Below, one piece after another: positions 538 through 23,481 of a stretch of DNA of 39,495 bases (positions are counted from its first letter, which is position 1; every line of letters starts with the position of its first letter). The stretch is from Candidatus Omnitrophota bacterium. Its GTDB lineage: Bacteria; Omnitrophota; Omnitrophia; Omnitrophales; JACQLI01. The notes under the pieces were generated by a model. That model made no database searches, had not been told where the DNA came from, and was given only the letters and a program-made list of their open reading frames with translations. The DNA lies in contig JACQLI010000045.1 of NCBI GenBank assembly GCA_016204125.1, positions 1 through 39,495 of the forward strand. Direction: 5' to 3'. A program made the translations under genes and the position numbers.

Positions 538-1369
538 ACTTAAGCTTTTTTACGGGCTTTTTCTTTTTCCGCTCATCGTCGCTATTGGAATGGCAGCCCT
601 TCTCTGCACGGTTGTCTTCCTCACCCATGAGGAAGAAACACCAGAAACACTTATCGCTGCGATCAAAAGCGGCTCTCCAAGCAAGCGCTGGCAGAAGGCC
701 TTTGAACTCTCCAATGAGCTGAATCGCCACCCTGAGATGATTCGGGGGAAAGGGGTAATGAATGAGATCATTCATATCCTGAGCGATCCCGATCATTACG
801 ATCCAAAAACAAGGTCCTATATGGCGATGGCCTTGAGCCGTTTCAAAGATCCCGAGGCCGTTTACGCCCTTCGTCAGAGACTTGACAAAGAGGAGGCAGA
901 GGTCCAGTTCTATTTGATATGGGCGCTTGGCAATTTGGGTGCGCGGGAGGCAGTCCGCGATCTCGAACCTTTTCTCTCGCGCGAAGCGGCAGATTTGCGT
1001 AAAATCGCAGCTTATGTTTTAGGCATTTTGGGCGATAAAAAAACGGTATCCAAGCTCGAACCGCTATTGGATGATTCTGTTGACGATGTTTCCTGGAATG
1101 CAGCCTTGAGTCTTGCTCGTCTGGGTGATGATTCAGGAAAAGAAGTTTTGTTAAAGATGCTTGACCGAAATATTCTCGTTTCGCATCAGATGTCCAAACA
1201 AGAAATTGAGAATGTGATGGTGAATGCAGTTAAAGGATTAGCCATGCTTAAGAATGTTGAATTTATCCCTCTCCTTCAATCGTTGGCTCAGGGTGACGAA
1301 AGCCTGAAGGTGAGACAAGCCGCCATTGAAGCCATCCAATATCAAAAAGAAGGAGCCCTTCATGGCTGA
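530..1369 (+). CDS. Membrane-anchored HEAT / PBS-lyase-like repeat protein
   Basis: The ATG at 530 overlaps the ccsA stop. The protein has one N-terminal TM helix (LFYGLFLFPLIVAIGMAALLCTVVFL). It then has repeated DPEAV..AL..LG / AV..L..LL units typical of HEAT_2/PBS-lyase repeats. Confidence 0.7.
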   Translation: MAKLKLFYGLFLFPLIVAIGMAALLCTVVFLTHEEETPETLIAAIKSGSPSKRWQKAFELSNELNRHPEMIRGKGVMNEIIHILSDPDHYDPKTRSYMAMALSRFKDPEAVYALRQRLDKEEAEVQFYLIWALGNLGAREAVRDLEPFLSREAADLRKIAAYVLGILGDKKTVSKLEPLLDDSVDDVSWNAALSLARLGDDSGKEVLLKMLDRNILVSHQMSKQEIENVMVNAVKGLAMLKNVEFIPLLQSLAQGDESLKVRQAAIEAIQYQKEGALHG

Positions 1370-1925
1370 GGCCCCACCTCCTGAGAAGGTTAGCGAGGGA
1401 AGACCCACGCCTGCAACACCTCCCTATCCTCCTTACGGACAGAAGATAACGCGTCGTCAGTTTCTTTCTTGGTTTACCCTTGCCTGGGCCAGCTTTGCTG
1501 CGGCGACCCTCGGCGCTTTGTCTCTTTGCTTAAGGTTTATGTTTCCCAACGTCCTTTTTGAACCTAAGATGTCGTTCAAGGCAGGCAAACCCGAAGAGTA
1601 TGAATTGGGCGTGGACGAACGCTGGAAGGAAAAATACGGGGTTTGGATCATCAAAACAAACGTAGGGATGTATGCGCTTTCCACTGTTTGCACTCACTTG
1701 GGTTGTACGCCCAATTGGCTTGCCAACGAGAACAAATTCAAGTGTCCTTGTCACGGGAGCGGGTTCTACTCTACAGGAATAAACTTCGAAGGACCTGCAC
1801 CAAGGCCGCTTGAGCGGGTTTTAATTTCGCAGGCTGAAGACGGTCAGGTTTTGATTGATAAAAGCAAAATATTTCAACAGGAAAAAGGCCAGTGGAATCT
1901 TCCTGGCGCCTTTCTTCCTCTTTAA
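1362..1925 (+). CDS. Rieske [2Fe-2S] subunit of a cytochrome b/b6-type complex
   Basis: AGGAG lies 6 nt upstream of the ATG at 1362, and the start overlaps the HEAT gene stop. A twin-arginine motif TRRQFL precedes a TM anchor. Cluster boxes CTHLGC and CPCHGS are present. Confidence 0.9.
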   Translation: MAEAPPPEKVSEGRPTPATPPYPPYGQKITRRQFLSWFTLAWASFAAATLGALSLCLRFMFPNVLFEPKMSFKAGKPEEYELGVDERWKEKYGVWIIKTNVGMYALSTVCTHLGCTPNWLANENKFKCPCHGSGFYSTGINFEGPAPRPLERVLISQAEDGQVLIDKSKIFQQEKGQWNLPGAFLPL

Positions 1926-1946
1926 CCTCTGAGGAGTCAATAAAGA

Positions 1947-2795
1947 ATGGCTGAAGCAGAACAAGCCCAGATGCCTGGACAACCTCCTGGGCCTAAGAAA
2001 AAATTTGCCATGCCGAGTTGGGAAGAGATCAAAAAATCGGCGACGAGATCCCAGATTTGGAAATCAATCTTCCGTCATGGTTACAGTACAGATGAAAGAG
2101 ACCGCGCTCTTACTGTTCTCACAAACGTCTTCTTTCATCTTCATCCTGTCAAGGTGAGAAAGTCAGGAGCTCGGTTTGGTTTTACTTGGTGTGCGGGCGG
2201 ACTTTCCTTTTTTGTCTTCCTTACCCTTGTAGTCAGCGGGATCCTACTGATGTTTTACTACAGACCCACCGTAGAGTATGCCTATAACGATATCGTCGCC
2301 TTGAGGGAACATGTTCCTTTTGGGATTATGCGGGAACTTCACAGATGGGGTGCCCATGCGATGATCATCACAGTTTGGCTCCACATGTTTCGTGTTTTTA
2401 TGACAGGTTCCTACAAGCCGCCGCGTGAATTCAACTGGATTGTCGGCGTCATCCTCCTTGTCCTTACGATGCTTCTCAGTTTCACAGGCTACCTTCTCCC
2501 TTGGGATCAACTTGCTATGTGGGCGATTACCGTGGGAAGCAATATGGCACGCGCCACACCCTTTCTCGGACACGAAGGCCCAGGCGCTGCGCTTCTCAGC
2601 ATTGGGGATATTCAGCTTGTTCATTCAGGAAGTGATGTAAGGTTTGCTCTTCTCGGCGGCCGTTTTGTAGGTGCTGGCGCTTTGCTCAGGTTTTACATCC
2701 TCCATTGCGTCGCTATTCCTGCCGCAGCCGTTATTCTCATGGCCGTTCATTTTTGGCGTATTCGTAAGGATGGAGGAATCAGCGGACCGCTATGA
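1947..2795 (+). CDS. Cytochrome b6-like protein (N-terminal four-helix heme b core)
   Basis: The sequence aligns by eye along its length with cytochrome b6. Matching segments are [51 protein letters not shown] and RFYILH...AVHF. It ends in ...[10 protein letters not shown] like b6. WCAGG contains the Cys equivalent to the heme ci ligand. Confidence 0.92.
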
Positions 2796-3874
2796 TCGAA
2801 GCCTTTAAGACGTTTGTTAATTCGATTTCATCTCCTGTTACCATATTTACCTCTGCTGCCATAGTCTTCTTCCTTATTCTTAGCTTTCCAAGAATCACAA
2901 CGAGCAAGTGGGTAGCAGGGAGTGCCCTCCTTCTTATTCTTCTCTTTTTCGGGATCGGACTTACCGATGAAAATTTCAGAAGGATTGTGACAGCTCCCGA
3001 TAATGTCCCTATTGTGGCAATGATCTTTGTCTTCGGTTATTTCACTTGGTTTGCGCTTCGGAAGGCAACGGAGAATGATCGCCGTATGGAGCAGGGCCTT
3101 CCGACTGTTGAAGCGACAGAGGCGAATGAGAAGGTTCTCGTATTCCCTTATCTTATCTTCATCGAATTTGTGGTTGCCCTTTTTTATGCGATCGGTCTTG
3201 TGATTTGGTCCATTCTTTTAAAAGCGCCACTCGAAGAACCTGCCAATCCAACCATTTCGCCGAATCCGAGCAAAGCGCCCTGGTATTTCCTGGGACTTCA
3301 AGAGATGCTTGTCTATTACGATCCGTGGATTGCGGGGGTCCTGCTTCCCACTTTTATCATTCTGGGTCTTTGCGCAATCCCTTACATTGATCGGGATACA
3401 AAGAGCTCAGGCTACTACAGTTTTAAACAGAGGCGTTTCGCCATAACCGCATTCCTTTTTGGCTTTTGGATCTTGTGGATTCTTCTAATTGTCGTGGGGA
3501 CATTTCTGCGCGGACCCAACTGGAATTTCTTTGGACCCTTCGAGGCGTGGGATGTTCACAAGGTTGTACCCCTTCTTAATGTGAACCTCTCAGAATTCAT
3601 TTATGTGAAGTGGCTTGGCTGGGGACTTCCCAAGTTTTGGATCATTCGTGAACTTCCAGGATTCGCTGTGATCATTCTTTATTACACCGCCGCGCCTCTT
3701 CTTCTTTCGAAGACTTTCTTTAAAGTAATTCATCAAAAGCTTGATCCTGTGCGTTACTCCATTTTGGCAACCCTTCTCCTTACGATGGTTGCCCTGCCTA
3801 TCAAAATGTACCTCAGATGGGCCTTTAATTTGAAATACATCGTGGCCCTCCCAGAATTTTTCTTCAATATCTAA
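2792..3874 (+). CDS. Cytochrome b C-terminal / b6f subunit IV-like membrane protein, extended form (360 aa)
   Basis: An ATGA overlap joins it to the b6-like gene. The motif [17 protein letters not shown] corresponds to the PEWYF motif of subunit IV / cyt b helix F. Extra TM helices lie on both sides of the core. Confidence 0.75.
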
Positions 3875-3883
3875 GGTTCATCC

Positions 3884-6679
3884 GTGCCTAAAGAGTCTCC
3901 CAAACTCTACAGCGTCGACAAGACCTTCGTGTGGTTTGCAATAGCAAGCGTTACCCTGCTTATCTCACTCATCCTGATGGTTGGTCAGGATTACAGTCGC
4001 GAATGGAAAAATTGGCAAAGAAAGTTTGTGCGCCTGAAATATGAAAAGACTCAAGCCGAACTTCAGTCGGCTCAGGAGAAGGTGGATAAGGCCAAACTTG
4101 AATCTCTCGAGAAAGAATTGGCCGAGGCACACAAGAATTTCAAAGCCAAAAAGCCTGAATATAAAAAAATCCAGAAAGAAATCGCAAAGCTTGATCTTGA
4201 ACTTACCAAGGTTAAATCGAAACATCAGGATCTCAAGCAATATCAAGACTCCTACAAATACTTTATTGAGGAATACCAAAACCATAAAGACCCCCGCGCT
4301 AGTGAATATGAAAAGAAATTAGAGGCGCTCATGCCCTCACTTGAAGAGGCGAGGCTTAAGGTGGAGGACCTTGAGAAAAGTAAGGAGGAAAAAGAGGCCG
4401 AGGTTAACGCCTTAAAAGAAGAGGAGAAACATCTCACCAAGGAAATCGATCGAATCACTCAAGAAAGGGATGAGGCAAAAAAAAGGCTCGCCAAACTGAA
4501 GCCAGGTCTTGTTACCGCTCTCCTCAATGCGCCCATGATCGATTTTCTCCGTCCTACCTTACAGATTCAACAAGTGGTCCTTGAAGATCTGGAGGACGAT
4601 TACCACTTCACAAGGGTGCAGAAGGTGGACCGTTGCACCACCTGTCATCTTGGGATTGATCAAAAAGGTTTTGAAGACGCCCCCCAGCCTTTCAAGACGC
4701 ATCCCAAACTCGATCTTTTTGTAGGTTCTGATTCGCCCCATTCCCTTGAAAAGTTTGGCTGCACGGTTTGTCACGGAGGAAATGGACATTCCCTCACATT
4801 TAAAGATACGGCCCACACCCCTCAGAATGAGGAACAAGAGAAAGCGTGGGAGAAAAAATACCATTGGCATCCTTTGGAAAAGTGGACAGAGAAGATGCTT
4901 CCGCTTAATCATGTCGAGGCCTCATGCACCAAATGCCATAGGGGTGTTGTGGATATTCCTCAGGCCGAGAAGTTAAATGAGGGAAGTAACCTCGCTCGAA
5001 TGTACGGGTGTTTTGGTTGTCATAAAATAGAAGGCTTTGAAAACCAGTGGAAGATCGGCCCAGGCCTTGACCACATTAACAGTAAGGTTACCAAAGATTG
5101 GATTGTTCGCTGGCTCCAGAATCCAAAGGCCTTTCGTCCCGCCACCGTGATGCCCCGTGTCTTCCATTTGAGTAATACAAGTTCACCAGAGGACACAGAG
5201 AAGAACAACGCGGCGATCGTTGGAACTGCGACTTATTTAACCAAGCATTCAACAAGCGTTGAACTTGAAAAGGCCAAAAAGGGGGATCCTAAGGAAGGGG
5301 AGCAGCTTTTCAAAAATGTGGGCTGTCTGGGTTGTCACTCTGTTGAAAGCGCGGGCGTTAATCGATTTGGACCGAATCTTTCTGGTTTGGGAAGCAAAAC
5401 CACAGCGGACTGGATTTTCACCTGGCTCAAAGATCCCAAACATTATCACAAAGATGCAAGGATGCCCAACCTTCGTTTAAGTGATGAAGCGGCAGCGGAC
5501 ATTACAAGTTACCTCCTCACGCTTCAGAATGAAAATTTTGAGAAAGAGCCCTTGCCTGAGGTGAAGCCAGAAATCGTGGATGCCATGCTTCTCAATTTCT
5601 TAAAGACAAGGCTCCGCCATGAAGAGGCGATGAGTGAACTTTCTAAGATGGACCAAGAAAGTAAATTTGATTTACTCGGAAAAGAGATCATAGGAAATCA
5701 AGGGTGTTTTGGCTGCCACAGCATACCAGGCTTTGAGCAGGCCAAACAGATTGGAACCGAACTCTCCAATGAGGGGTTAAAAGAGGTAGAAAGGCTTGAC
5801 TTTGGTTTCGTTCCCATTGAAAGGTCGCGGCAGGCGTGGTTTTCTCAGAAACTCAAAAATCCTCGCATCTTTGATCAGGGCAGGATCAGGGAATATTTTG
5901 AGAAATTGAGGATGCCGCATTTTGGTTTTACAGACGAGGAAGCCGAGGCGCTCACAACTTTTCTCCTAAGCCTTACTCAGGAAAAAATTCCTTTTGAGAT
6001 GTTGAGGATTCTTAATTTGAAGGAGCAGGAGATAGAGGCGGGAAGATTTCTCATCAGCAAATACAATTGTCAGGGCTGCCATATTCTGGATGGTAAAGGT
6101 GGCAAGGTAAAAGAATTGCTCGGAGATCCAGGCCTAGCTCCTCCTCCGCTTGACGGGGAAGGGGCTAAGGTCCATGAAACCTGGCTCTACTCCTTTCTGC
6201 GTTCTCCCTCAACCATTCGGCCTTGGCTTAAATTCAGGATGCCAACCTTTGGCTTTACGAATGATCAGATCCTCACACTTGTTAAGTATTTTTCCAATAG
6301 AGAAAAGCAGGAAATTTCATTTGATCAGAGCGAGACGCAACCTTCGCCCAAGATGCTTGAATCAGGCAAGAAACTTTTTGAAGCCTTACAGTGTACAAAG
6401 TGTCACCAGCCTGGTCAGGCCGCACCAGGACTCAGTGCATCCTTCCTCGCGCCCGACTTGACGCTTGCCAAAGAAAGACTCAAACCAAACTGGGTTGTGG
6501 AGTGGTTAAAAGATCCTCAAAAGCTTCAACCAGGGACGATGATGCCAACCTTTTTCCCCGAAGGTCAAACCCCCTTAACGGACATCCTTGAGGGAGACTC
6601 TATCAAGCAGACTGAGGCCATACGCGACTACTTGATGCAGTATACCCTTGAAGCCGAATCCTCACCTAAAAAGGCTTAA
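3884..6679 (+). CDS. Membrane-anchored octaheme c-type cytochrome with coiled-coil stalk
   Basis: GTG start with AAGG upstream. It has an N-terminal TM helix and then a K/E-rich heptad-like segment of about 180 aa. There are eight CxxCH motifs: CTTCH, CTVCH, CTKCH, CFGCH, CLGCH, CFGCH, CQGCH and CTKCH. The last five sit in repeated class-I-like modules that end in (R/M)MP. Confidence 0.85.
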   Translation: MPKESPKLYSVDKTFVWFAIASVTLLISLILMVGQDYSREWKNWQRKFVRLKYEKTQAELQSAQEKVDKAKLESLEKELAEAHKNFKAKKPEYKKIQKEIAKLDLELTKVKSKHQDLKQYQDSYKYFIEEYQNHKDPRASEYEKKLEALMPSLEEARLKVEDLEKSKEEKEAEVNALKEEEKHLTKEIDRITQERDEAKKRLAKLKPGLVTALLNAPMIDFLRPTLQIQQVVLEDLEDDYHFTRVQKVDRCTTCHLGIDQKGFEDAPQPFKTHPKLDLFVGSDSPHSLEKFGCTVCHGGNGHSLTFKDTAHTPQNEEQEKAWEKKYHWHPLEKWTEKMLPLNHVEASCTKCHRGVVDIPQAEKLNEGSNLARMYGCFGCHKIEGFENQWKIGPGLDHINSKVTKDWIVRWLQNPKAFRPATVMPRVFHLSNTSSPEDTEKNNAAIVGTATYLTKHSTSVELEKAKKGDPKEGEQLFKNVGCLGCHSVESAGVNRFGPNLSGLGSKTTADWIFTWLKDPKHYHKDARMPNLRLSDEAAADITSYLLTLQNENFEKEPLPEVKPEIVDAMLLNFLKTRLRHEEAMSELSKMDQESKFDLLGKEIIGNQGCFGCHSIPGFEQAKQIGTELSNEGLKEVERLDFGFVPIERSRQAWFSQKLKNPRIFDQGRIREYFEKLRMPHFGFTDEEAEALTTFLLSLTQEKIPFEMLRILNLKEQEIEAGRFLISKYNCQGCHILDGKGGKVKELLGDPGLAPPPLDGEGAKVHETWLYSFLRSPSTIRPWLKFRMPTFGFTNDQILTLVKYFSNREKQEISFDQSETQPSPKMLESGKKLFEALQCTKCHQPGQAAPGLSASFLAPDLTLAKERLKPNWVVEWLKDPQKLQPGTMMPTFFPEGQTPLTDILEGDSIKQTEAIRDYLMQYTLEAESSPKKA

Positions 6680-13702: not shown

Positions 13703-14116
13703 ATGGTTTTAAGAAAGAGACTTGTTCCTTTTGTTTTTGCATTGTTCTGGGGGGTTCTGCCTTGCGCTCATGCAGCCCAAAATTATGATCTTAAGGAAAT
13801 TACGCCCACTGTTCAAAACGCGATTCAAAGTCGGCAAGCACGATACAGCCAGTTACAACACCTCAAATCTGAGGGTGTCATTGGAGAAAGCAATCAGGGT
13901 TTTGTTTCCATGTTGAAAGAATTACCTGACGTAAGCGGAATCATTGCAGCTGAGAATCAGGATCGGGAAGTCATTTATCAAGCGGTTGTAGACCAGAATG
14001 GGCTTGGGCAAGGCGGCTTGGGTCAAGTTAAAGCCATTTTTGCCGAAGTTCAACGGGGAAAAGCTCAGCCAGGAGAGTTGATTCAGCTTCCTTCGGGTGA
14101 GTGGGTTCGAAAATAG
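13703..14116 (+). CDS. ydbL: YdbL / DUF1318-family periplasmic protein
   Basis: A signal peptide ends in AHA. The segment R.ARY..L..LK..G.IGE...G.V......AENQDRE.IY is characteristic of DUF1318. Confidence 0.65.
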   Translation: MVLRKRLVPFVFALFWGVLPCAHAAQNYDLKEITPTVQNAIQSRQARYSQLQHLKSEGVIGESNQGFVSMLKELPDVSGIIAAENQDREVIYQAVVDQNGLGQGGLGQVKAIFAEVQRGKAQPGELIQLPSGEWVRK

Positions 14117-14117
14117 A

Positions 14118-14852
14118 ATGGAAAAATATTACGGCTGGGGTCTTCCTGCCGATATCTCCACTCATGGAGCAGCCATTGATCGGCTGATTTATGTCCTGCA
14201 TGGGTTTATGGCTGTTCTTTTTGTTGGTTGGCTCATTTTCCTTGTCATCACACTTGTCCGTTTTCGTGCAAGGCCAGGCCATCAAGCTGTCTATCAATCG
14301 AATCATTTCAAGGCGCCGACCTATCTGGAGGTAGGCGTTGGCCTTTTTGAAGCTTTTCTCCTCGTCGGGTTTTCCTTTCCAATCTTCCACCAGTATCGCA
14401 ATGTTCCACCGCCACGTGATCAGGCGATGGAAGTCCGTATTGTTGCGGAGCAGTTTGCCTGGAACATTCACTATCCAGGGGATGACGGCATTTTTGGGAA
14501 AACAGACATCCATTTGATCAGCCCCGCGAATCCTGTGGGCCTTGATCGTAGCGACCCCGCAGCTAAAGATGACATTACAACGGTCAATCAGCTTCATACC
14601 CCTGTGCACAAACCTGTGATTGCCCACCTCTCTTCAAAAGACGTGATTCATAGCTTCTTTCTTCCTGTGATGCGTGTGAAACAAGATATGATTCCAGGGC
14701 AAACCGTTGACACCTGGTTTGAAGCGAAGAAAATGGGAAATTTTGAAATTGCCTGTGCGCAGCTTTGCGGGCTCGGCCATTATCGAATGCGAGGATTCTT
14801 TATTGTTGAGACAGAGGATAAATTTAAGGAGTGGATAAATCAAATGAGGTAG
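14118..14852 (+). CDS. coxB: Cytochrome c oxidase subunit II (CuA subunit, no fused cytochrome c domain)
   Basis: The protein has two N-terminal TM helices. The HSFFLPVMRVKQDMIPGQ segment and the CuA motif CAQLCGLGHYRM are present, with Gln where Glu is usual. The TAG stop at 14850-14852 lies inside the GTAG head of a REP-like element. Confidence 0.9.
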   Translation: MEKYYGWGLPADISTHGAAIDRLIYVLHGFMAVLFVGWLIFLVITLVRFRARPGHQAVYQSNHFKAPTYLEVGVGLFEAFLLVGFSFPIFHQYRNVPPPRDQAMEVRIVAEQFAWNIHYPGDDGIFGKTDIHLISPANPVGLDRSDPAAKDDITTVNQLHTPVHKPVIAHLSSKDVIHSFFLPVMRVKQDMIPGQTVDTWFEAKKMGNFEIACAQLCGLGHYRMRGFFIVETEDKFKEWINQMR

Positions 14853-14919: not shown

Positions 14920-16641
14920 ATGACAGGCGAACACAATTTACCCTTTTGGCGAAAATATATCTTTTCGATCGACCACAAGGTGATCGGGATTCAGTACGCT
15001 ATTACAGGACTTCTTTTTCTCCTTTTCGGTTTTTTTCTCATGATGATGATGCGTTGGCAGCTCGCTTATCCAGGACAACCCCTTCCTTGGATCGGACATC
15101 TTTTTAGTGAGAAGGCAATGCTGGGAGGCGTGATGTTACCTGAGTTTTATAACCAATTAGGAGCCATGCACGGAACCATCATGGTTTTCTTAGGCGTGGT
15201 TCCGCTTGCGGTCGGCGGATTCGGCAACTACTTCGTTCCTCTTCAAATCGGTGCGCCTGATATGGCTTTCCCCAAGCTTAACATGGTGAGTTACTGGGTC
15301 TACTTCATCGGGGGAGTCATCATGATCGTGAGCTTCTTTGTACCCCAAGGCGCTGCGCAGTCAGGTTGGACTTCGTATGCACCGCTTGCCGTCATCGCCC
15401 CGACAGGACAAACTCTCTGGCTTTTAGGAATGGTATGCTTGATCACTTCGTCGCTTCTGGGTTCTATCAATTTCATTACGACCATTGTTCAACTGAGAGC
15501 AGACGGCCTCTCATTTTTTAGACTTCCCTTCTTTGTCTGGGCTCAATTTGTGACCAGTTTTCTTCTCTTGCTCGCTTTTCCTCCCCTTGAAGCAGCAGGC
15601 GTTCTCCAGCTCATGGATCGACTTGCCGGGACGAGTTTTTTCATGCCAAGCGGCCTTGTGGTTAGCGGAAAAGTAGTTGAAGTAAGCGGAGGAGGAAACC
15701 CCGTTCTCTGGCAGCATCTTTTTTGGTTCCTCGCCCACCCTGAAGTTTACGTCTTGATCCTTCCTGCCATGGGAATCGTGTGCGAAATCATTGCCTGTAA
15801 TACTCGCAAACCGATCTATGGTTATAAAGGAATGGTCTATTCCGTTATTTTTATCGGATTCATGTCCTTCATTGTCTGGGCTCATCACATGTTTCTTACG
15901 GGAATGGGGACAAAGATGAGCGCCTTCTTTCAAATCACAACCATGATCATCTCTATTCCCTCAGTTGTCATTTTGACGGCACTTGTCCTGAGCCTCTGGG
16001 GAGGTTCTATCCGATTCACGGTACCGATGCTTTTTGCCACCGCCTTCCTGCCGATGTTTGGTATTGGAGGGCTCACAGGTTTACCTTTGGGACTTACGGC
16101 ATCGGACATTCATCTGCACGATACTTACTATGTGATTGGACATTTCCATTACGTCGTTGCTCCAGGGACACTCCTTGCTCTCTTTGCGGGGATTTATCAC
16201 TGGTTTCCCAAGGTGACGGGAAGAAAAATGTCAGACTTTTTGGGGAAAATCCACTTCTGGCTCTCTTTCCTACTTATGAATGGAGTCTTTATGCCTATGT
16301 TCATTCAAGGATTGGCGGGAGTTTCAAGAAGACTTTGGGATCCGATGCAATACGCTCATGCCCAGCCTACACAGCCCCTCAACGTTTTTATTTCCATTTG
16401 CGCCTGGCTCTTGGGGCTCGCGCAAATTCCTTTTATTCTCAATTTTTTCTGGAGCCTGATCTGGGGAAAGAAGACGGATCAAAATCCTTGGCAGGCGACC
16501 ACCCTCGAGTGGTCAGCCCCCTCGCCTCCGCCGCATGGGAATTTCGAACATGTCCCCGTTGTTTACCGCGGACCTTATGAATATAGCATCCCTGGTCAAA
16601 GGAATGATTTTTGGCCTCAGGCGATGAAAGAAGGGAACTAA
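14920..16641 (+). CDS. coxA: Cytochrome c oxidase subunit I, A-type heme-copper oxidase
   Basis: Motifs present are HKVIGIQY, GNYFVPLQIGAPDMAFP, WFLAHPEVYVLILP (with the Glu of A1-type oxidases), VWAHHMF and HDTYYVIGHFHYV. Confidence 0.95.
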   Translation: MTGEHNLPFWRKYIFSIDHKVIGIQYAITGLLFLLFGFFLMMMMRWQLAYPGQPLPWIGHLFSEKAMLGGVMLPEFYNQLGAMHGTIMVFLGVVPLAVGGFGNYFVPLQIGAPDMAFPKLNMVSYWVYFIGGVIMIVSFFVPQGAAQSGWTSYAPLAVIAPTGQTLWLLGMVCLITSSLLGSINFITTIVQLRADGLSFFRLPFFVWAQFVTSFLLLLAFPPLEAAGVLQLMDRLAGTSFFMPSGLVVSGKVVEVSGGGNPVLWQHLFWFLAHPEVYVLILPAMGIVCEIIACNTRKPIYGYKGMVYSVIFIGFMSFIVWAHHMFLTGMGTKMSAFFQITTMIISIPSVVILTALVLSLWGGSIRFTVPMLFATAFLPMFGIGGLTGLPLGLTASDIHLHDTYYVIGHFHYVVAPGTLLALFAGIYHWFPKVTGRKMSDFLGKIHFWLSFLLMNGVFMPMFIQGLAGVSRRLWDPMQYAHAQPTQPLNVFISICAWLLGLAQIPFILNFFWSLIWGKKTDQNPWQATTLEWSAPSPPPHGNFEHVPVVYRGPYEYSIPGQRNDFWPQAMKEGN

Positions 16642-16642
16642 A

Positions 16643-17239
16643 ATGTCTTCTCTTATTCGCTACATTTCAAGGCCGCATCCGATCACTGGAGTCACCAATG
16701 CCAAACTTGGCACGTGGTGTTTTCTCGCATCGGAGGTGATGCTTTTCGGAGCGCTTTTTTCTGCTTATATTTTGCTTCGCACAGGCGCGAGTTCATGGCC
16801 TCGCGGGTCCGAACTTTTGAGTGTACCTCTCGCGACTTTTAACACCCTTGTCCTTATCACTTCGAGCGTGACCATGGTTATGGCCTGGGCGTCTCTCATG
16901 ATGAAGGATCTATCGAAGTACAAACGCTACATGGGATTCACCATCCTCCTTGCATTGACCTTTCTTGTGGTGAAAGGCTTTGAGTACGGACATAAATTTG
17001 AACACCACCATTTTCCGAGCACGAGCACCTTTTATGCTATTTACTTTACCTTAACGGGTCTTCATGGGCTTCACGTATTGGGCGGAGTCATTGTTAACAC
17101 TTACTTCCTGTTGCCAGGAAGTAAACTGTGGGAAACGGAACCCGAACAGTTCACTGGAAGGATTGAATGCGCAGGTCTCTACTGGCACTTTGTGGATCTC
17201 GTTTGGATTTTCCTTTTCCCCGTGTTATACCTTTTATAG
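16643..17239 (+). CDS. coxC: Cytochrome c oxidase subunit III (short five-helix form)
   Basis: Motifs present are FLASEVMLFGALF, GFEY, the FTLTGLHGLHVLGG-like segment and YWHFVDLVWIFLF. Confidence 0.9.
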   Translation: MSSLIRYISRPHPITGVTNAKLGTWCFLASEVMLFGALFSAYILLRTGASSWPRGSELLSVPLATFNTLVLITSSVTMVMAWASLMMKDLSKYKRYMGFTILLALTFLVVKGFEYGHKFEHHHFPSTSTFYAIYFTLTGLHGLHVLGGVIVNTYFLLPGSKLWETEPEQFTGRIECAGLYWHFVDLVWIFLFPVLYLL

Positions 17240-17245
17240 AGAAAA

Positions 17246-17554
17246 ATGGAACACGCGACGCCTGAAGCGATCAAACGGCATGTCAAAGTTTACATCAGCG
17301 TTTTTGTAGCGCTCGCCTTTTTAACTGTGGTTACGGTGATCGTTTCTTATCTTAAACTTTCGCTCGTTTACGCCATCATCGTTGCTCTTTCAATCGCCAC
17401 CATCAAAGGCTCGCTTGTGGCGGCCTATTTCATGCACTTGATCTCTGAGAAAAAGATTATTTTTTGGGTGCTTGTTCTAACACTTGTCTTTTTCCTGGCT
17501 CTTTTAATCACTCCTGCTTTGACAGGCTTGGAGATAAGAAGCTATGTCTCTTAA
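17246..17554 (+). CDS. Prokaryotic cytochrome c oxidase subunit IV family protein
   Basis: The 102-aa protein has three TM helices and the COX4_pro-like segment IKGSLVAAYFMHL. It sits directly after coxC. Confidence 0.7.
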   Translation: MEHATPEAIKRHVKVYISVFVALAFLTVVTVIVSYLKLSLVYAIIVALSIATIKGSLVAAYFMHLISEKKIIFWVLVLTLVFFLALLITPALTGLEIRSYVS

Positions 17555-17750
17555 AGCGTTCCACATTTTTTTCATTATCATCTCCATCGTTTTAACAGTG
17601 GGGTTTGGCTTTTGGGGAGTTCGGGATTACTCGAATTCTAAAAACGTGATTAACTTTATTTTAGGAATCAGTTCTTTTGTTGGAGGAGGGGCTTTGGCGA
17701 TTTATTTGGTGTGGTTCTTCTCCAAGATGAAGAGGATCAGCCACTCATGA
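17544..17750 (+). CDS. Small two-TM membrane protein (68 aa)
   Basis: It overlaps the subunit IV stop by 11 nt and has two clear hydrophobic helices. I recognise no family. Confidence 0.4.
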   Translation: MSLKAFHIFFIIISIVLTVGFGFWGVRDYSNSKNVINFILGISSFVGGGALAIYLVWFFSKMKRISHS

Positions 17751-17950
17751 GCCTTCTCTTTTCAACATCTGTTTGGGCTTGTGCGGTCTGTTTTGGAGAT
17801 CCCAACTCGAGTATGTCAAAGGCTCTCATTTGGGCGGTCCTTTTTATGGTAGGAGTTGTCGGATCCGTATTGGCAGGTATCCTTTCCGTAATTTTGGTAT
17901 GGATACGTAGGGCTCAGAAGTTAGGAGCTCAGGCTACATCAGTATCTTGA
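17747..17950 (+). CDS. Small single-TM membrane protein with N-terminal CAVCFGDP motif (67 aa)
   Basis: An ATGA overlap joins it to the preceding small ORF. The sequence MSLLFSTSVWACAVCFGDPNS is followed by one TM helix and a basic tail (IRRAQK). Confidence 0.45.
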   Translation: MSLLFSTSVWACAVCFGDPNSSMSKALIWAVLFMVGVVGSVLAGILSVILVWIRRAQKLGAQATSVS

Positions 17951-18003
17951 CCCCGCCTTAGAGTTTCGCTACACTGAGATCCCCTAAAGGAGGATTTACA
18001 GCA

Positions 18004-18735
18004 ATGAAACAGACAAAGTTTTACTTTTCAGCACTTATGGTAGTCCTTGGTCTCATTGGAGTTACGATGCTTTTTTCCGTTAACTCGGCAAAAGCTGTAG
18101 AAGGTGGAACTGTCTTAACAGGAAAAGCCGTTTTTGAAGGAACGCCTCCCGCTAGAGAAAAGATACGGTTAGACGCAGACCCCGTCTGTTCCATGAAATT
18201 TCCTGAGGGACTGGAGAGCGAAGAAATTATCGTGAATCCGAACGGTACTCTGAAAAATGTTTTTGTCTATGTCAAGCAGGGGCTTGAGGGACAAAAGTTT
18301 GAAGCACCAAAAGAACCCGTCGTCTTTGACCAGAACGGCTGTCACTATACCCCGCATGTGTTTGGAATTCAGGTGAACCAGCCTCTTGAAATCCGCAACA
18401 GTGACGAAACCTTACACAATGTCCATGCCCTTCCCAAAGCAAACCAAGAGTTTAATCTTGGAATGCCTCTTAAGGGGATGAAGCTGACCAAAACCTTTAA
18501 TTCACCTGAAACCATGGTGAAGTTCAAGTGTGAGGTTCATCCTTGGATGGCCGCTTACGCGGGAGTTATTGATCACCCCTTTTTTGCTGTTACAGGTGAC
18601 GATGGAACTTTTCAGCTCCAGGGTCTTCCGCCTGGAGAATATGTCGTTGAGGCCTGGCATGAGAAATACGGCGCGCAGACGGCCACGGTAAAGGTTCCTG
18701 ATACGGGCGAGGTTTCTTTTACATTCAAAGGCTAA
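18004..18735 (+). CDS. Secreted cupredoxin-like (amicyanin-type C-x2-H-x2-M) protein with C-terminal CarboxypepD_reg-like strands
   Basis: AAAGGAGG RBS and a signal peptide are present. Candidate Cu ligands are the His in LHNVHALP and the CEVHPWM motif. The C-terminal GTFQLQGLPPGEYVVEAWHEKYG segment is typical of carboxypeptidase-regulatory-like beta sandwiches. A paralog lies at 22422-23105. Confidence 0.6.
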   Translation: MKQTKFYFSALMVVLGLIGVTMLFSVNSAKAVEGGTVLTGKAVFEGTPPAREKIRLDADPVCSMKFPEGLESEEIIVNPNGTLKNVFVYVKQGLEGQKFEAPKEPVVFDQNGCHYTPHVFGIQVNQPLEIRNSDETLHNVHALPKANQEFNLGMPLKGMKLTKTFNSPETMVKFKCEVHPWMAAYAGVIDHPFFAVTGDDGTFQLQGLPPGEYVVEAWHEKYGAQTATVKVPDTGEVSFTFKG

Positions 18736-18778: not shown

Positions 18779-19594
18779 TTGGTTTTCCTGACCTTCCTTC
18801 TCCTTTTCATGGGAGGTCTTGTAACCAGCACCGATTCGGGCCTTGCTGTCCCTGACTGGCCACTTTCCTTTGGCGGTTTCCTCCCCCCTATGGTCGGAGG
18901 AATCCGCTTCGAACATTCCCACAGGGTCATTGCTTCCACAGTAGGTCTCCTCACATTGATCTTGGCGATTTGGACGGGCATGAAGGAAGAAAAAACAAAG
19001 ATTCGCTGGCTTGCTATCGCAGCCCTTGGGGCCGTGGTTCTACAGGGAATTTTGGGAGGCCTCACCGTTCTTTACCGCCTTCCAGCTCCCATTTCAGTCG
19101 CACATGCCTGCCTTGGCCCCACCTTTTTTTCTTTGGTCGTTTCTCTAGCTACTGTCAGTTCCCCAAAATGGGAAGTCAGGAGAATATCTTCTGATCAGGG
19201 AAGTTTTCATCACTTTGCTTTAATAACCACACTCTTTATCTTTCTCCAAGTTCTTCTGGGGGCGATTGTTAGACACACAGGATCTTGGATTTTGGTTCAC
19301 ATTGCCTGGGCCTTTCTTCTCCTTATAATGATTGGAAGGCTTGTTCGGAAGGCGCTGGTTGATTTTGAGGACGAAAAGGAAATTCTAAGATCCACGTTTC
19401 TTCTTGCATTCCTTGTGATAATCGAATTCTTTTTAGGGCTTGGCGCGTTCGCCTTTACACGATTAGTAGATAGTAGCCAAGCAAGGTGGAGCCAAGTTCT
19501 TATTCCAACCTTGCATCAAACACTAGGTTCACTTATCCTGGCTATGGGTGTGGTTCTAGCGCTTCGTTCAAGAAGAGACTTAGCTCAAGTATGA
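18779..19594 (+). CDS. ctaA: Heme A synthase (CtaA/COX15 family), Cys-less loop type
   Basis: Motifs present are GGLVTSTDSGLAVPDWPLSFG, FEHSHRVIA and the second-half His motifs. The TTG at 18779 is the only canonical start but it truncates TM1. The frame is open from 18692, and a CTG at 18740 is preceded by AAAGG. Confidence 0.8.
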   Translation: MVFLTFLLLFMGGLVTSTDSGLAVPDWPLSFGGFLPPMVGGIRFEHSHRVIASTVGLLTLILAIWTGMKEEKTKIRWLAIAALGAVVLQGILGGLTVLYRLPAPISVAHACLGPTFFSLVVSLATVSSPKWEVRRISSDQGSFHHFALITTLFIFLQVLLGAIVRHTGSWILVHIAWAFLLLIMIGRLVRKALVDFEDEKEILRSTFLLAFLVIIEFFLGLGAFAFTRLVDSSQARWSQVLIPTLHQTLGSLILAMGVVLALRSRRDLAQV

Positions 19595-20493
19595 AAAGCG
19601 AAATTTTCGAAATAAAAGAGGCTGTCGGGGTAGAGAAAATCAAACTCGCTGATTTTCTTGAAGTTACCAAATTACGCCTTGTTTCACTTGTCCTATGGAG
19701 TGTAGCCGTCGGCTTCTTTCTCGCTACCGACAGCCCATTCTCTCTATCTCTTTTTCTTAAGGCGCTTGGAGGAATTTCACTTGTAGCCGCAGGGGCTATG
19801 GTACTCAATCAATTTCTCGAGATGGATGCTGACGCCAAGATGAAAAGAACGGAGAATAGACCTCTTCCGAGCGGAAGACTCAAAGCAACAGAAGCTCTTT
19901 TTATCGGCACTCTCTTTTCGGTGGCTGGACTTTTGGTTCTAGGAAGTCAGGTGAATTTGCTTCTGGATTTTCTAGCTGGCCTCACCCTCATAGTTTATCT
20001 TTTTCTTTACACGCCCCTCAAAACCCAAACACCCCTCTGCGTATGGATTGGTGCGATTCCGGGAGCTATGCCTCCTGTCTTGGGTTGGGTGGCACGAAAA
20101 GGGGAGGCGGGGATTGAGGCCTGGGTTCTTTTTCTCATTCTTCTTGTTTGGCAGCTTCCTCATGTTCTTGCTATCTCCTGGGTTCACAAAGAAGATTACG
20201 TTCAAGCAGGATTCAAAATGCTTCCTCTTGGAGGAAACGTGGAAGAAAAAACAGGGCGAAGGATTGTTTTTTATTCGCTTGTTCTTATTCCAATCAGCCT
20301 GGGGCCAGTTTTAATCAAAATGAACGGTGCTCTTTATTTGATTGGGGCAATGATTTTAGGGATTTGGTTCCTCGCCTCTGCTTTAAAAACACACCGCAAT
20401 CTCGACCATCGAGCCAAGCCATTTTTTAGAGATTCCATCCTTTACCTAAGTCTTCTCTTTCTCCTTTTGCTTTTAGATAAGAGGTTCTTATGA
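19591..20493 (+). CDS. ctaB: Protoheme IX farnesyltransferase (heme O synthase)
   Basis: An ATGA overlap joins it to ctaA. UbiA-family motifs are NQFLEMDADAKMKRTENRPLPSG and YTPLK. The 35-codon N-terminal extension in the ORF track overlaps ctaA and was rejected. Confidence 0.9.
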   Translation: MKSEIFEIKEAVGVEKIKLADFLEVTKLRLVSLVLWSVAVGFFLATDSPFSLSLFLKALGGISLVAAGAMVLNQFLEMDADAKMKRTENRPLPSGRLKATEALFIGTLFSVAGLLVLGSQVNLLLDFLAGLTLIVYLFLYTPLKTQTPLCVWIGAIPGAMPPVLGWVARKGEAGIEAWVLFLILLVWQLPHVLAISWVHKEDYVQAGFKMLPLGGNVEEKTGRRIVFYSLVLIPISLGPVLIKMNGALYLIGAMILGIWFLASALKTHRNLDHRAKPFFRDSILYLSLLFLLLLLDKRFL

Positions 20494-21401
20494 GAATTGT
20501 CCTGACAGGGGGCACAGGTTTTATCGGCAGTGCTCTTCGAGAAAGTTTGATCGAGAAGGGACACGAAGTCGTTATCCTGACAAGACGAGCTTCCCGAGAG
20601 AACCAGCCTGGAATCCGAACTCGATACCGCTACTGGAATCCCGCAGAAGAGGGGGCTTGGCAAAAAGAAGTGGACGGTGTCGATGGAGTGATCAATTTAG
20701 CTGGCGAGCCCCTTGTAGGAAAACGCTGGACGCGAGCGCAGAAGCAGATGCTTCTTGAAAGTCGAACGGGTTCCACACAGGCTATTGTTCGTGCGATACG
20801 GAATGCAAAGAAAAAGCCACTTTTTCTGATCAACGCATCAGCTGTCGGTTATTACGGTGCACACGGAGATGAAAAGCTGACCGAGGAGAATCCGCATGGT
20901 AAAGATTTTTTGGGTCAGTTATGTCAAGCGTGGGAGGCCCACGCATTAAGAGCTCAAGATTTTGGAGTTCGTGTTGTTCTTATCAGAATCGGCATTGTTC
21001 TCGAAAAAGGCGGAGGAGCGCTTGCGAAGATGCGTCCCCCTTTCAACCTTGGTTTGGGTGGTCCTCTGGGGACAGGGGAGCAGTGGATGAGTTGGATCCA
21101 TCTTGCTGATTTGATTCGCCTTTTTCACCTTGCCGTTGAAAAGAAAGAAATTCAAGGTCCTGTCAACGGCACTGCGCCGAACCCCGTCACGATGCTCGAA
21201 TTTGCAAAGACGCTGGGCAAAGTGCTTCATCGGCCGGCTGTTTTTCCCGTACCCGCTTTTTTGCTTAAGATCCTTCTCGGCGAAATGGCGGATGTTCTTT
21301 TAACGGGCCAGAGAGTGATTCCTAAGAAGGCGTTTTCGCAAGGCTTTACGTTTCAATTTCCCACTCTTCGCGAAGCCTTTTTAGAGATTCTCAAAAAGTG
21401 A
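20490..21401 (+). CDS. TIGR01777/YfcH-type atypical SDR (epimerase-like, DUF1731 C-terminus)
   Basis: The N-terminal MRIVLTGGTGFIGSAL is a Rossmann motif. The segments SAVGYYG, WMSWIHLADL and the C-terminal GQRVIPKKA...GFTFQFP are typical of this family. ATGA overlaps occur on both sides. Confidence 0.8.
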   Translation: MRIVLTGGTGFIGSALRESLIEKGHEVVILTRRASRENQPGIRTRYRYWNPAEEGAWQKEVDGVDGVINLAGEPLVGKRWTRAQKQMLLESRTGSTQAIVRAIRNAKKKPLFLINASAVGYYGAHGDEKLTEENPHGKDFLGQLCQAWEAHALRAQDFGVRVVLIRIGIVLEKGGGALAKMRPPFNLGLGGPLGTGEQWMSWIHLADLIRLFHLAVEKKEIQGPVNGTAPNPVTMLEFAKTLGKVLHRPAVFPVPAFLLKILLGEMADVLLTGQRVIPKKAFSQGFTFQFPTLREAFLEILKK

Positions 21402-22015
21402 CCACCCTTCCCGCTACTCGTCAAAAGGTTTTAGGGTTTGTTTTAATAGCGTTTCTTATTGGAAATGGAGCGACTCTTCTATGGATCTTTTCAAAAGGGG
21501 GAAGGATCGACACAAAGAGATCGGCTCTGGGTGTTTATGGCGGTGCTCCTGACTTTTCTCTAACCGAGAGGAGCGGGCAGACATTTGTCAAAGAAAGCCT
21601 TGTTGGAAAACCATGGATTGCTGACTTTATCTTTACGAGGTGCTCAGGCCAGTGTCCTATGATGAGTGCTCACATGCAGAGGATCCAAGGGCTTTTTCCA
21701 AAGGAGACCGATCTACACCTTGTTTCCTTCACCGTCGATCCCAACTGGGATTCCCCCGAAGTTCTTTCTCGTTATGCGGAAAGGTATTCTGCCGAAAAGG
21801 ATCGGTGGCTTTTTCTGACAGGTCCTAAGGAGGAGATCAACCGAATCCTTAAAGGGTTTTTCCTGAGTTCTGTGGATGAGGACCCGAATATGCACAGCAT
21901 TCGATTTATCTTAGTGGATGGAGAAGGTCAGATCCGCGGGTTTTATGACGCGGGCGATCCTAGTTCTATCAAGCAACTGATTCAAGATACAAAAGTTTTG
22001 ATATCCAAGAGATGA
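21398..22015 (+). CDS. SCO1/SenC copper chaperone (thioredoxin fold)
   Basis: A GTGA overlap marks the start. An N-terminal TM helix, the motif FIFTRCSGQCP (CxxxC) and a downstream conserved His (NMHSIRFILVD) are present. Confidence 0.85.
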   Translation: MTTLPATRQKVLGFVLIAFLIGNGATLLWIFSKGGRIDTKRSALGVYGGAPDFSLTERSGQTFVKESLVGKPWIADFIFTRCSGQCPMMSAHMQRIQGLFPKETDLHLVSFTVDPNWDSPEVLSRYAERYSAEKDRWLFLTGPKEEINRILKGFFLSSVDEDPNMHSIRFILVDGEGQIRGFYDAGDPSSIKQLIQDTKVLISKR

Positions 22016-22440
22016 GCCCAGCGATTTTGTCTTTTCTCCCAGGAATGAATGCAGGTCTCAATGCAGCGAGTGCTTTGCTGATCGTCTTGGGAGTGATTTT
22101 TATACGGCAGGGAGCGTGGACTGCTCACGCACTTTGTATGTGCGCTGCAGTGGGAACTTCAACCCTCTTTCTTATTTCATACCTCGTTTATCATTTCTTT
22201 CATGGCGCTACACCTTTTCCAGGACAAGGCTGGATCAGGCCTGTCTATTTTTCCATTCTGATTTCACATACCTTTCTCGCCATTGTTAATGTTCCGCTTG
22301 TCATCGTAACTCTTACGCGAGCGCTCAAAAGCCAATTCGAACGACACGTCAAGATAGCCCACATCACCTTTCCCATCTGGCTCTATGTCTCGGTAACTGG
22401 GATAATTATTTACTGGATGCTTTATCGGGTGGAGTGGTAG
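22012..22440 (+). CDS. DUF420 (CtaM-like) membrane protein
   Basis: ATGA overlap at the start. The 142-aa protein has four TM helices. The pattern N..LN..SA.LL..G...I......H...M..A and H..IA...FPIWLYVS is typical of DUF420 proteins found with aa3 oxidase genes. Confidence 0.7.
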   Translation: MSPAILSFLPGMNAGLNAASALLIVLGVIFIRQGAWTAHALCMCAAVGTSTLFLISYLVYHFFHGATPFPGQGWIRPVYFSILISHTFLAIVNVPLVIVTLTRALKSQFERHVKIAHITFPIWLYVSVTGIIIYWMLYRVEW

Positions 22441-23105
22441 GTCAGGAGAAGGGACTTCGTTTCAGGGCTCACTTCAGCTTTAATCTCGCCAAGCTCCTCA
22501 TGCCAGACGGTCAGGGTGTACATTCCCTCAGGGATATTTTTAATCTTAAAAGATCCTGTCTCGTCTGTTAAAGCATAGAAAGGATGCTCCTTAACAATAA
22601 CAAACGCATGCATCCAGTGGTGGACGCCGCAGCGGAAGACAAAGCGGCCTGCATCATCAAAACGCTTCTTTAGGACCTGTCCTTTCTTTGGCATCGCATC
22701 ATTGAAGAGCATCTCGGCCTTCTCGTCAAAAGCCCTTACATTGTGAAGAATGGCTTCTGAATTGAGGATAGAGACAGTAGCGCCTTTTGGAATCAAGAGA
22801 ATATGGGGAGAAAATTCGCAGTTGATTTGATCAAGAGTGTAATCCTTCTCTTTTAATGAATCTTCTTCGAGAGGCAGGTTGCCTTCCAATTTAACCACTG
22901 CATTGGCAACCCATCCTTCTGGAGAAACCTTGAGTTTGGGAGATTCTTTAGTTTTTCCACAAAGGGAAGCGTGTTCTTTCGAAATCTCAAGTGACTGAAC
23001 TTCAGGAAAGGGTGGCTCTAACCTTACCTTTCCCTTGAGATCAAGAGCCAAAAGGGTAGAAGGGATGAGAAGAAAAAAGAAAAAGAGGCTACTGAAGATC
23101 TTCAA
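22422..23105 (-). CDS. Secreted cupredoxin-like protein, paralog of 18004-18735
   Basis: It has a signal peptide and aligns with the paralog at three points: DQINCEFSPHI with DQNGCHYTPHV, NSEAILHNVRA with NSDETLHNVHA, and RCGVHHWMHAF with KCEVHPWMAAY. The same C-terminal GSFKIKNIPEGMYTLTVWHEELG segment is present. Confidence 0.6.
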   Translation of the reverse strand: MKIFSSLFFFFLLIPSTLLALDLKGKVRLEPPFPEVQSLEISKEHASLCGKTKESPKLKVSPEGWVANAVVKLEGNLPLEEDSLKEKDYTLDQINCEFSPHILLIPKGATVSILNSEAILHNVRAFDEKAEMLFNDAMPKKGQVLKKRFDDAGRFVFRCGVHHWMHAFVIVKEHPFYALTDETGSFKIKNIPEGMYTLTVWHEELGEIKAEVSPETKSLLLTYHSTR

Positions 23106-23481
23106 AATATTCCCATTCTACAAGGTCGCCTGCCTTGAGATGAGATTTATAAGGACTCGCGTTTTTTGTGGTCCCGTTAATTTTAAGCCGCCACCACCTG
23201 TTTTGTGCAGGGTCGATCGCGACTCCATCGATTGCCTTGACCTCCTCTGATTTGCAGCAGGCCGCTCCGTCTACAACAGGTAGAACCTTTCGGAGGGCAT
23301 CCTTTGGAGTTATCTTTTCGGGTACAACGATTTCTCGGGACACACTTGACTTCTGGGCTGGTCCAAAATCAATCTTGACCGTGACAGGAACCATTTTGGG
23401 AGGAAGAGTTGAGATGAGCAGAAGATTTCCCGTTGTTACTTGAGGGCTAAGTAAGAAAAGAATGAGAATTACGTAACTCAT
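23089..23481 (-). CDS. Secreted DUF4430-like (transcobalamin beta-domain-like) protein
   Basis: It has a signal peptide. The pattern ...DALRKV...VKAIDGV......WWRLKINGT.......LKAGDLVEWEY matches the DUF4430 signature (sIdG...yW.y.vNG....l.dGD.i.w.y). It overlaps the downstream cupredoxin gene by 17 nt. Confidence 0.5.
   Translation of the reverse strand: MSYVILILFLLSPQVTTGNLLLISTLPPKMVPVTVKIDFGPAQKSSVSREIVVPEKITPKDALRKVLPVVDGAACCKSEEVKAIDGVAIDPAQNRWWRLKINGTTKNASPYKSHLKAGDLVEWEYFEDLQ

Follow-up and report, generated by a model that had tools for sequence, protein, structure and literature searches.

A predicted blue-copper protein nested in a transthyretin-like domain as a probable electron carrier to aa3 oxidases with a cytochrome-c-less subunit II

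Blue-copper proteins that carry electrons to terminal oxidases, among which plastocyanin is also counted, have been described in several lineages. Sulfocyanin (SoxE of the Sulfolobus SoxM supercomplex), halocyanin of haloarchaea and auracyanin of Chloroflexus are membrane-tethered blue-copper proteins that take over the role of cytochrome c in linking a Rieske/cytochrome b (or ACIII) complex to a terminal oxidase with CuA. Another such protein is AcoP (short for "acidophile cytochrome c oxidase partner"), whose gene lies directly upstream of coxB. AcoP is a blue-copper carrier to the terminal oxidase in Acidithiobacillus ferrooxidans (PMC4059628). We analyzed a contig of 39,495 nucleotides from a Candidatus Omnitrophota bacterium (JACQLI010000045.1 of assembly GCA_016204125.1; hereafter the window), in which an open reading frame (ORF) of 243 amino acids (aa) at 18004-18735, hereafter the target, is part of an aa3 oxidase gene cluster. 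We propose that the target is probably a blue-copper carrier that replaces cytochrome c between a bc-type complex and the aa3 oxidase, because its homologous module takes the place of cytochrome c in two enzymes that are unrelated, because different lineages have it fused to one or the other of the proposed partners, and because the CoxB proteins linked to it never have a haem of their own.

The target ORF runs on the plus strand from an ATG at 18004 to a stop codon at 18733-18735. A sequence-only reading of the window had described a secreted 243-aa protein between the oxidase subunits and ctaA, and the ORF, its Shine-Dalgarno sequence and the gene order (coxB-coxA-coxC-coxD, two small ORFs, the target, ctaA-ctaB) agree with that description. 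The N-terminus, with two Lys, a 17-residue hydrophobic core and A-K-A followed by V32, fits a cleavable-looking Sec signal peptide, and residues 7-22 form a helix of low predicted local distance difference test score (pLDDT) in the AlphaFold 2 model; the protein is most likely exported to the periplasm. In place of this signal peptide, many homologs carry a lipobox Cys and a Pro/Ala/Gly-rich linker, the usual membrane tether of respiratory carriers. DNA of this locus occurs in groundwater metagenomes, and no RNA data set was listed for it. The parts of the target gene are as follows.

18004-18735, plus strand: target gene, a predicted 243-aa secreted type-1 copper protein with a cupredoxin nested in a transthyretin-like sandwich (ORF, model, conservation).
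17987-17994, plus strand: strong Shine-Dalgarno sequence AAGGAGGA, 9 nt 5' of the target ATG.
18004-18096, plus strand: residues 1-31, predicted Sec signal peptide (K2, K5, hydrophobic core, A-K-A ahead of V32; presumed cleavage).
18103-18141, plus strand: residues 34-46, first strand of the split transthyretin-like (CarboxypepD_reg) domain (model strand 36-45).
18142-18306, plus strand: residues 47-101, inserted lid with conserved D-P-x-C62 and NVFVY motifs (alignment, model).
18187-18189, plus strand: codon of C62, conserved partner of C113.
18340-18342, plus strand: codon of C113, conserved partner of C62.
18307-18570, plus strand: residues 102-189, cupredoxin domain (structure match, profile, conservation).
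18415-18420, plus strand: H138-N139 within LHNVHALP, the ligand His and its Asn (H138 at 18415-18417).
18529-18549, plus strand: CEVHPWM loop with the ligand codons (C176 at 18529-18531, H179 at 18538-18540, M182 at 18547-18549).
18571-18732, plus strand: residues 190-243, the remaining transthyretin-like strands with the signature H191-P192 and W218-H219-E220 (near-cut-off PF13620 match, fold match).

Structure prediction, which the sequence-only reading had put forward as a check, places a plastocyanin/amicyanin-like cupredoxin at residues 102-189. The model of the target, built on an alignment of 44 diverse members, reached a pLDDT of 91.9 and a predicted template modeling (TM) score of 0.84. 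In this model residues 102-189 match plastocyanin 7pcy at Z 11.4 (root-mean-square deviation 1.4 A over 84 residues), amicyanin at Z 10.1-10.4 and the Nitrosopumilus cupredoxin 5fc9 at Z 10.0, and they are thereby predicted to adopt the Greek-key beta-sandwich fold of cupredoxins. Strand 36-45 and residues 190-243 superpose on the transthyretin-like domain of carboxypeptidases N and D (2nsm, carboxypeptidase N, Z 10.4 over 75 aligned residues; 1qmu, carboxypeptidase D, Z 10.1; 5aq0, Z 9.5), and the alignments to 2nsm and 1qmu span model residues 36-243. Since these outer strands form one sandwich, the cupredoxin together with a 55-residue lid (residues ~47-189) is inserted within it. The sequence-only reading had recognized a carboxypeptidase-regulatory-like C-terminus, to which residues 190-243 indeed belong, but the domain is not merely C-terminal, as strand 36-45 completes the split sandwich. 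The outer domain shares its seven-strand sandwich fold with the transthyretin-like domain of carboxypeptidases D and N (CarboxypepD_reg) but differs from it in being split by the ~140-residue insertion and in its family-specific H-P and W-H-E motifs. Among 48,161 representative structures, no solved chain spans both the cupredoxin and the transthyretin-like parts.

Profile comparisons pointed in the same direction as the model. The family profile matched the solved cupredoxins 5fc9 (E 2.7e-6), 9cck (E 3.5e-6) and amicyanin (E 6.7e-4); the His, the Cys and the second His are in register in the alignments to 5fc9 and 9cck, and the axial Met is aligned in 9cck (CTLHPWM), with an Arg at that position in 5fc9. 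In Pfam, the target matched only transthyretin-like and CarboxypepD_reg-type families, all below their cut-offs; the PF13620 match (31.8 bits against a cut-off of 32.3) covers only residues 195-240 because the domain is split. Neither PF00127 nor PF13473 matched the target at E values up to 1, and NCBIfam gave no match to it. The paralog encoded in the window, described below, matches PF00127 (Copper-bind) with 22.7 bits (cut-off 21.2) at 22593-22832. Judged by these comparisons, the target family is homologous to Pfam Copper-bind/Cupredoxin_1 but falls outside both models. The cupredoxin identity is supported by the fold, the profile matches and the near-invariant ligands.

The predicted copper ligands are conserved across the family. 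The sequence-only reading had pointed to a His in LHNVHALP and to the C-x2-H-x2-M of CEVHPWM; both are present, and among 391 homologous domain instances each position of the His-Asn, Cys, His and Met set is retained in 96-99.7% (H138 in 379/381, N139 in 373/381, C176 in 384/386, H179 in 387/388 and M182 in 372/389), as is W181 (387/389). In the 44-member alignment H138, C176, H179 and W181 are invariant, and N139, M182, C62 and C113 nearly so. We predict that the target binds one type-1 (blue) copper through H138, C176, H179 and M182. That these four residues may meet at a single site is suggested indirectly by the 1.4 A superposition on plastocyanin and by the ligand register in the profile alignments. 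The pair C62 and C113 fits a disulfide, as had been suggested earlier for a conserved Cys pair: both residues are kept in 369 domains, both are lost in 3 and only one is present in 2. The signature of the transthyretin-like part, H191-P192 (18574-18579) and W218-H219-E220 (18655-18663), is strongly conserved as well (H191 in 359/389 domains, H219 in 369/385) and is retained in the paralog and in all fusions; it is distant in sequence from the type-1 site and may serve as a domain interface, a docking surface or a second site.

A word-indexed search returned 7,874 matches to the family, and clusters at 50% identity numbered 13,851 at E values up to 1e-3 and 1,710 at E values up to 1e-30. Databases label its members "plastocyanin", "carboxypeptidase regulatory-like domain-containing protein" or "hypothetical", and no cultured organism was found among the cluster members listed. 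Seven homologs (P0122, P0123, P0125, P0140, P0153, P0210 and P0337) consist of two modules in tandem. Mostly, only one copy in these proteins still has C-x2-H-x-W-M, and P0210 has none, which indicates that the copper site degenerates in duplicated copies.

The features of the window around the target were annotated as follows.

1326-6679, plus strand: Rieske protein, split cytochrome b and the octahaem cytochrome c (931 aa), from which electrons are proposed to come (gene annotation).
3884-6679, plus strand: the octahaem cytochrome c, 931 aa with eight CxxCH motifs.
14097-14852, plus strand: coxB, CuA subunit II without a cytochrome c domain, the proposed acceptor (CuA ligands CAQLCGLGHYRM).
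14920-17554, plus strand: coxA (HPEVY, A1-type), coxC and coxD.
17544-17950, plus strand: two small membrane-protein ORFs, which accompany the same oxidase type in other phyla.
18779-20493, plus strand: ctaA and ctaB (haem A synthesis), the commonest downstream neighbors of the family.
21398-22440, plus strand: SCO1 and DUF420 (CtaM), oxidase assembly.
22422-23105, minus strand: paralog of 227 aa with 35% identity, the same His/Cys/His/Met set and Cys pair, and a PF00127 match.

The CoxB of the window has CuA ligands and no CxxCH motif, and among window ORFs of at least 60 aa the only real CxxCH gene is that of the 931-aa octahaem cytochrome, with no small cytochrome c gene. Both results agree with the sequence-only reading, which had seen a CoxB with a CuA site and without a fused cytochrome c domain, and no soluble monohaem cytochrome c gene in the cluster. 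Across the whole genome (1.1 Mb, 73% complete), cytochrome c domains are confined to two proteins, the octahaem cytochrome and a dihaem/EB_dh protein of 554 aa.

This context recurs in other genomes. We compared 80 loci, the closest relatives among more than 600 matches in species-representative genomes, from Omnitrophota, Planctomycetia, Verrucomicrobiia, Ignavibacteria, Bacteroidota, Acidobacteriota, Gemmatimonas, Chloroflexi, Acidimicrobiia, Rhodothermales, Myxococcales, Bdellovibrionota and others. In 75 of them, from about a dozen phyla, cox or cta genes are present, the family member lying beside coxA/coxB or ctaA-ctaB-ctaM. The next gene downstream, in the 70 loci where it could be evaluated, is ctaA in 30, coxA in 12, coxB in 11, ctaB in 5 and a second copy of the family in 4; upstream, the neighbor in 16 of 59 evaluable loci is a multihaem c gene that belongs to a Rieske/cytochrome b cluster. 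None of the ~35 linked CoxB ORFs contains CxxCH. Across 201 Omnitrophota genomes the family was found in 63 and COX1 in 67, with both in 59, the family only in 4, COX1 only in 8 and neither in 130; these counts include related genomes, which are not independent of one another. Five complete Vicinamibacterales genomes have their best copy at the head of a module-ctaA-ctaB-DUF420 operon that is ~0.25-4.4 Mb from the cox operon. That cox operon (coxA-coxC-coxD, two small membrane-protein ORFs, coxB) is of the same cytochrome-c-less type, and no CxxCH ORF of at least 80 aa lies within 10 kb of three Vicinamibacterales cox operons.

We found natural fusions of the module among 107 long homologs and the long matches of a representative search. 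The module is joined to CoxII in 67 proteins, N-terminally in 65 and C-terminally to CuA in two (P0233 and P0163), where it occupies the place that cytochrome c has in caa3 oxidases. Four proteins of 1,629-1,955 aa with eight CxxCH motifs carry it at their C-terminal end. It is also part of three further cytochrome c fusions with 3-4 CxxCH motifs, being terminal in two and within 60 residues of the end in one; a fragment among these, P0341, is homologous to the octahaem cytochrome of the window (E 3e-35). In 17 of the 107 long homologs the module follows, always C-terminally, a PuuD-like DUF989/Urate_ox_N membrane domain, and in P0218, from the representative search, the two occur in reverse order. 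The characterized urate oxidase PuuD joins the DUF989/Urate_ox_N domain to a C-terminal cytochrome c (PMC4562309). The module follows CoxIV in two proteins. The copper ligands are retained in all fusions checked, and the ESM Atlas contains clusters of CoxII, cytochrome c and PuuD-family proteins that include the same two-domain fold. In caa3 subunit II and in PuuD, the cytochrome c domain has the same position and presumed role as the module in P0233, P0163 and the 17 DUF989/Urate_ox_N proteins, whereas the module would use copper instead of haem, has an unrelated fold and is mostly N-terminal in its CoxII fusions (65/67).

As a separate observation, the PuuD-like copper-module proteins (P0342-P0367 and P0218, together with an Atlas cluster named "urate hydroxylase PuuD family" in Bdellovibrionota) may represent a membrane urate oxidase variant that depends on copper. 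We rejected four seeming fusions to CtaA (P0340, P0371, P0374 and P0375) as frameshift read-throughs, lying on high-GC contigs with out-of-frame Arg/Gly/Ala-rich stretches between the two parts, and as artefacts they are unfit as Rosetta-stone evidence.

The sequence-only reading had suggested that the target could shuttle electrons from the octahaem bc-type complex to CuA, and its placement, the fusions, the cytochrome-c-less CoxB and the co-occurrence with COX1 support this suggestion. In the scheme that we propose, a type-1 copper would sit in the amicyanin-like short loop of the cupredoxin inserted in the transthyretin-like sandwich. Its electrons would come from the octahaem cytochrome c that belongs to the Rieske/cytochrome b complex, through the class-I-like haem domains at the C-terminus of that cytochrome, and would go on to CuA in the aa3 oxidase, whose subunit II has no cytochrome c domain. 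The target would in this way have the function that a soluble cytochrome c has or, in caa3 oxidases, a fused cytochrome c domain, either as a freely diffusing protein or as a fixed subunit of a bc-aa3 supercomplex; the transthyretin-like domain would, at a guess, be a docking element or a spacer. We infer the direction of electron transfer and the partners to be those given in this scheme.

Several points weigh against this proposal. In half of the evaluable loci the nearest neighbor is ctaA or ctaB, not a structural oxidase gene, and in the Vicinamibacterales the module-ctaA-ctaB-DUF420 operon lies far from cox, an arrangement that would be in keeping with an assembly role as well. A search for PCuAC in the 73% complete source genome gave no match (PF04314 matches neither the target nor any protein of that genome), and the target could in principle fill this gap in copper handling. 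The gene contexts that we compared are those of the closest relatives only. The alternative given in the sequence-only reading, which we consider unlikely, is that the target loads CuA (or CuB) as a copper chaperone of the periplasm or as an assembly factor. Operons shared with ctaA, ctaB, SCO1 and DUF420/CtaM are as expected for such a factor, as is the lack of a PCuAC match; the known chaperones PCuAC and CupA are cupredoxin-like, with CupA matching the target model at Z 8.3; and reviews expect assembly factors that are still to be identified (PMC9145763). However, the ligand set of the target is the rigid His/Cys/His/Met of electron-transfer sites with its His-Asn hallmark, and not the PCuAC motif H(M)x10Mx21HxM (PMC9145763), which is not present in the target. 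Permanent fusions to octahaem cytochromes c and PuuD-like proteins would make no sense for a chaperone of CuA, and the cluster already encodes SCO1.

The position of ctaA as the most frequent single neighbor, and the dedicated module-ctaA-ctaB-ctaM operon of the Vicinamibacterales, would be explained if the family had a second or different job, that of the redox partner still missing in the periplasm for haem A synthase (CtaA), which we regard as improbable. In a stricter form of this idea, which seems to us quite improbable, the target serves CtaA and delivery of electrons to CuA is secondary or absent. Such a partner would account for ctaA lying immediately downstream in 30 of 70 evaluable loci and for the Vicinamibacterales operon without a cox gene nearby, and CtaA needs O2 and radical/redox chemistry for which a review names no bacterial electron donor or acceptor (PMC9145763). 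Against it, all four apparent CtaA fusions are read-throughs while the 67 CoxII fusions are genuine, some loci adjoin coxB/coxA without a ctaA in reach (L037, for example), and the Vicinamibacterales cox operons are cytochrome-c-less too and still need a donor. Were this so, many phyla would have a blue-copper protein that drives or gates their haem A synthesis, and copper supply would be tied to haem A supply. Finally, the Pfam matches, limited to transthyretin-like and CarboxypepD_reg-type families below cut-off, the database name "carboxypeptidase regulatory-like domain-containing protein" and the loss of the motif from one copy in some tandem proteins could suggest a non-redox structural or carbohydrate-binding periplasmic protein with a vestigial copper-like motif. 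This is highly improbable, given the near-invariance of the four ligands and the Asn in 391 domains from many phyla, the cupredoxin fold and homology, and the exclusively respiratory gene context and fusions.

Compared with the described carriers, the target proposed here as a link between the bc-type complex and the aa3 oxidase is comparable in its proposed function to AcoP, which is a single-copper cupredoxin tied to an aa3-type oxidase. Unlike the target, AcoP has a green site and a longer ligand loop, lacks a transthyretin-like domain and is confined to acidophiles. Its structures 7z3g and 7z3f are weak Foldseek matches (E ~1e-4, TM 0.47-0.49; for 7z3g, E 1.4e-4, query TM 0.28, target TM 0.49), and AcoP shows no sequence match to the target family; we regard it as a functional analogue, probably from a different sequence family. 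Sulfocyanin, halocyanin and auracyanin differ from the target in being archaeal or Chloroflexus-specific plain cupredoxins with longer ligand loops, and no Pfam model of these families matches the target.

The likeness to amicyanin (MauC) is in the copper site, since both have the short C-x2-H-P-x-M loop (C-E-V-H-P-W-M in the target) and a His-Asn pair, which in amicyanin is His53-Asn54 (PMC12723479). Amicyanin, however, is a free protein of 105 aa whose partner enzyme is methylamine dehydrogenase (MADH), whereas the target has an oxidase/bc context and a cupredoxin domain that lies within another domain, together with a lid and two conserved Cys. No mau genes are among the annotated neighbors in the window and in 75 of the 80 loci, and no genome-wide MADH search was made. 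The best sequence and structure matches, Nitrosopumilus 5fc9 (Nmar_1307) and 9cck and the Thermus scotoductus NirK 6hbe C-terminal cupredoxins, share a C-x2-H-P-W-M/R loop with the target. They are, in contrast to it, free-standing or appended to multicopper enzymes, without a transthyretin-like host or an oxidase context, and 5fc9 lacks the axial Met.

No publication describing the target family was found in the literature that we searched. The nearest published statement concerns unnamed membrane-bound "Cup" cupredoxins in iron oxidizers (Degli Esposti, PMC8239418), and another reports two cupredoxin-like genes in NXR clusters of the Nitrospina genome (PMC3578206). The family is bacterial and very widespread. 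It would work like the known blue-copper carriers, yet we count it in none of their families; what is new here is an amicyanin-type loop in a cupredoxin that is nested in a transthyretin-like domain and falls outside the Pfam cupredoxin models. A-type oxidases with a cytochrome-c-less subunit II occur in many abundant environmental phyla (Acidobacteriota, Planctomycetota, Verrucomicrobiota, Omnitrophota, Gemmatimonadota and Bacteroidota/Ignavibacteria), and what feeds them has not been spelled out. If our proposal is correct, the target family supplies the answer, a carrier with copper instead of haem that leads from the bc-type complex to the oxidase; respiratory chains would then be reconstructed differently from metagenomes, and aerobic respiration in those phyla would be tied more tightly to copper availability. 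The nested arrangement also offers a new cupredoxin scaffold for electron-transfer studies, and the fusions to CoxII, octahaem cytochromes and PuuD-like proteins make the carrier hypothesis directly testable.

We also made observations on other genes of the window and genome. The CuA loop of the window CoxB reads C-A-Q-L-C-G, as does the consensus of 29 linked CoxB proteins; most subunits II have Glu in place of this Gln. The two small ORFs after coxD encode 68 aa and ~67-79 aa, the second with a C-x2-C ahead of its helix. They were seen in loci L105-L107 and in 16 and 11 of loci L014-L093, across phyla and always between coxD and coxB or ctaA, and their products are likely extra oxidase subunits or assembly factors. 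The paralog overlaps an upstream 130-aa secreted DUF4430 gene (22422-23481 for the pair, minus strand). This pair is convergent with DUF420 and is found again in L001, the closest relative, and the Verrucomicrobiia loci L019, L021 and L022 have similar paralogs after their DUF420 genes.

Elsewhere in the genome (contig C10:18000-28000, locus L103, 965-6083, minus strand), a 1146-aa molybdopterin oxidoreductase lies beside the 554-aa protein, which combines two cytochrome c domains with an ethylbenzene-dehydrogenase-type haem b domain. Together they are an NXR/type-II DMSO reductase-like periplasmic enzyme that could feed the same chain. After the oxidase cluster of the window comes an AOX-like gene (PF01786; 23543-24217, plus strand), followed by a CREG/PNPOx-like gene, an order that is kept in L001.

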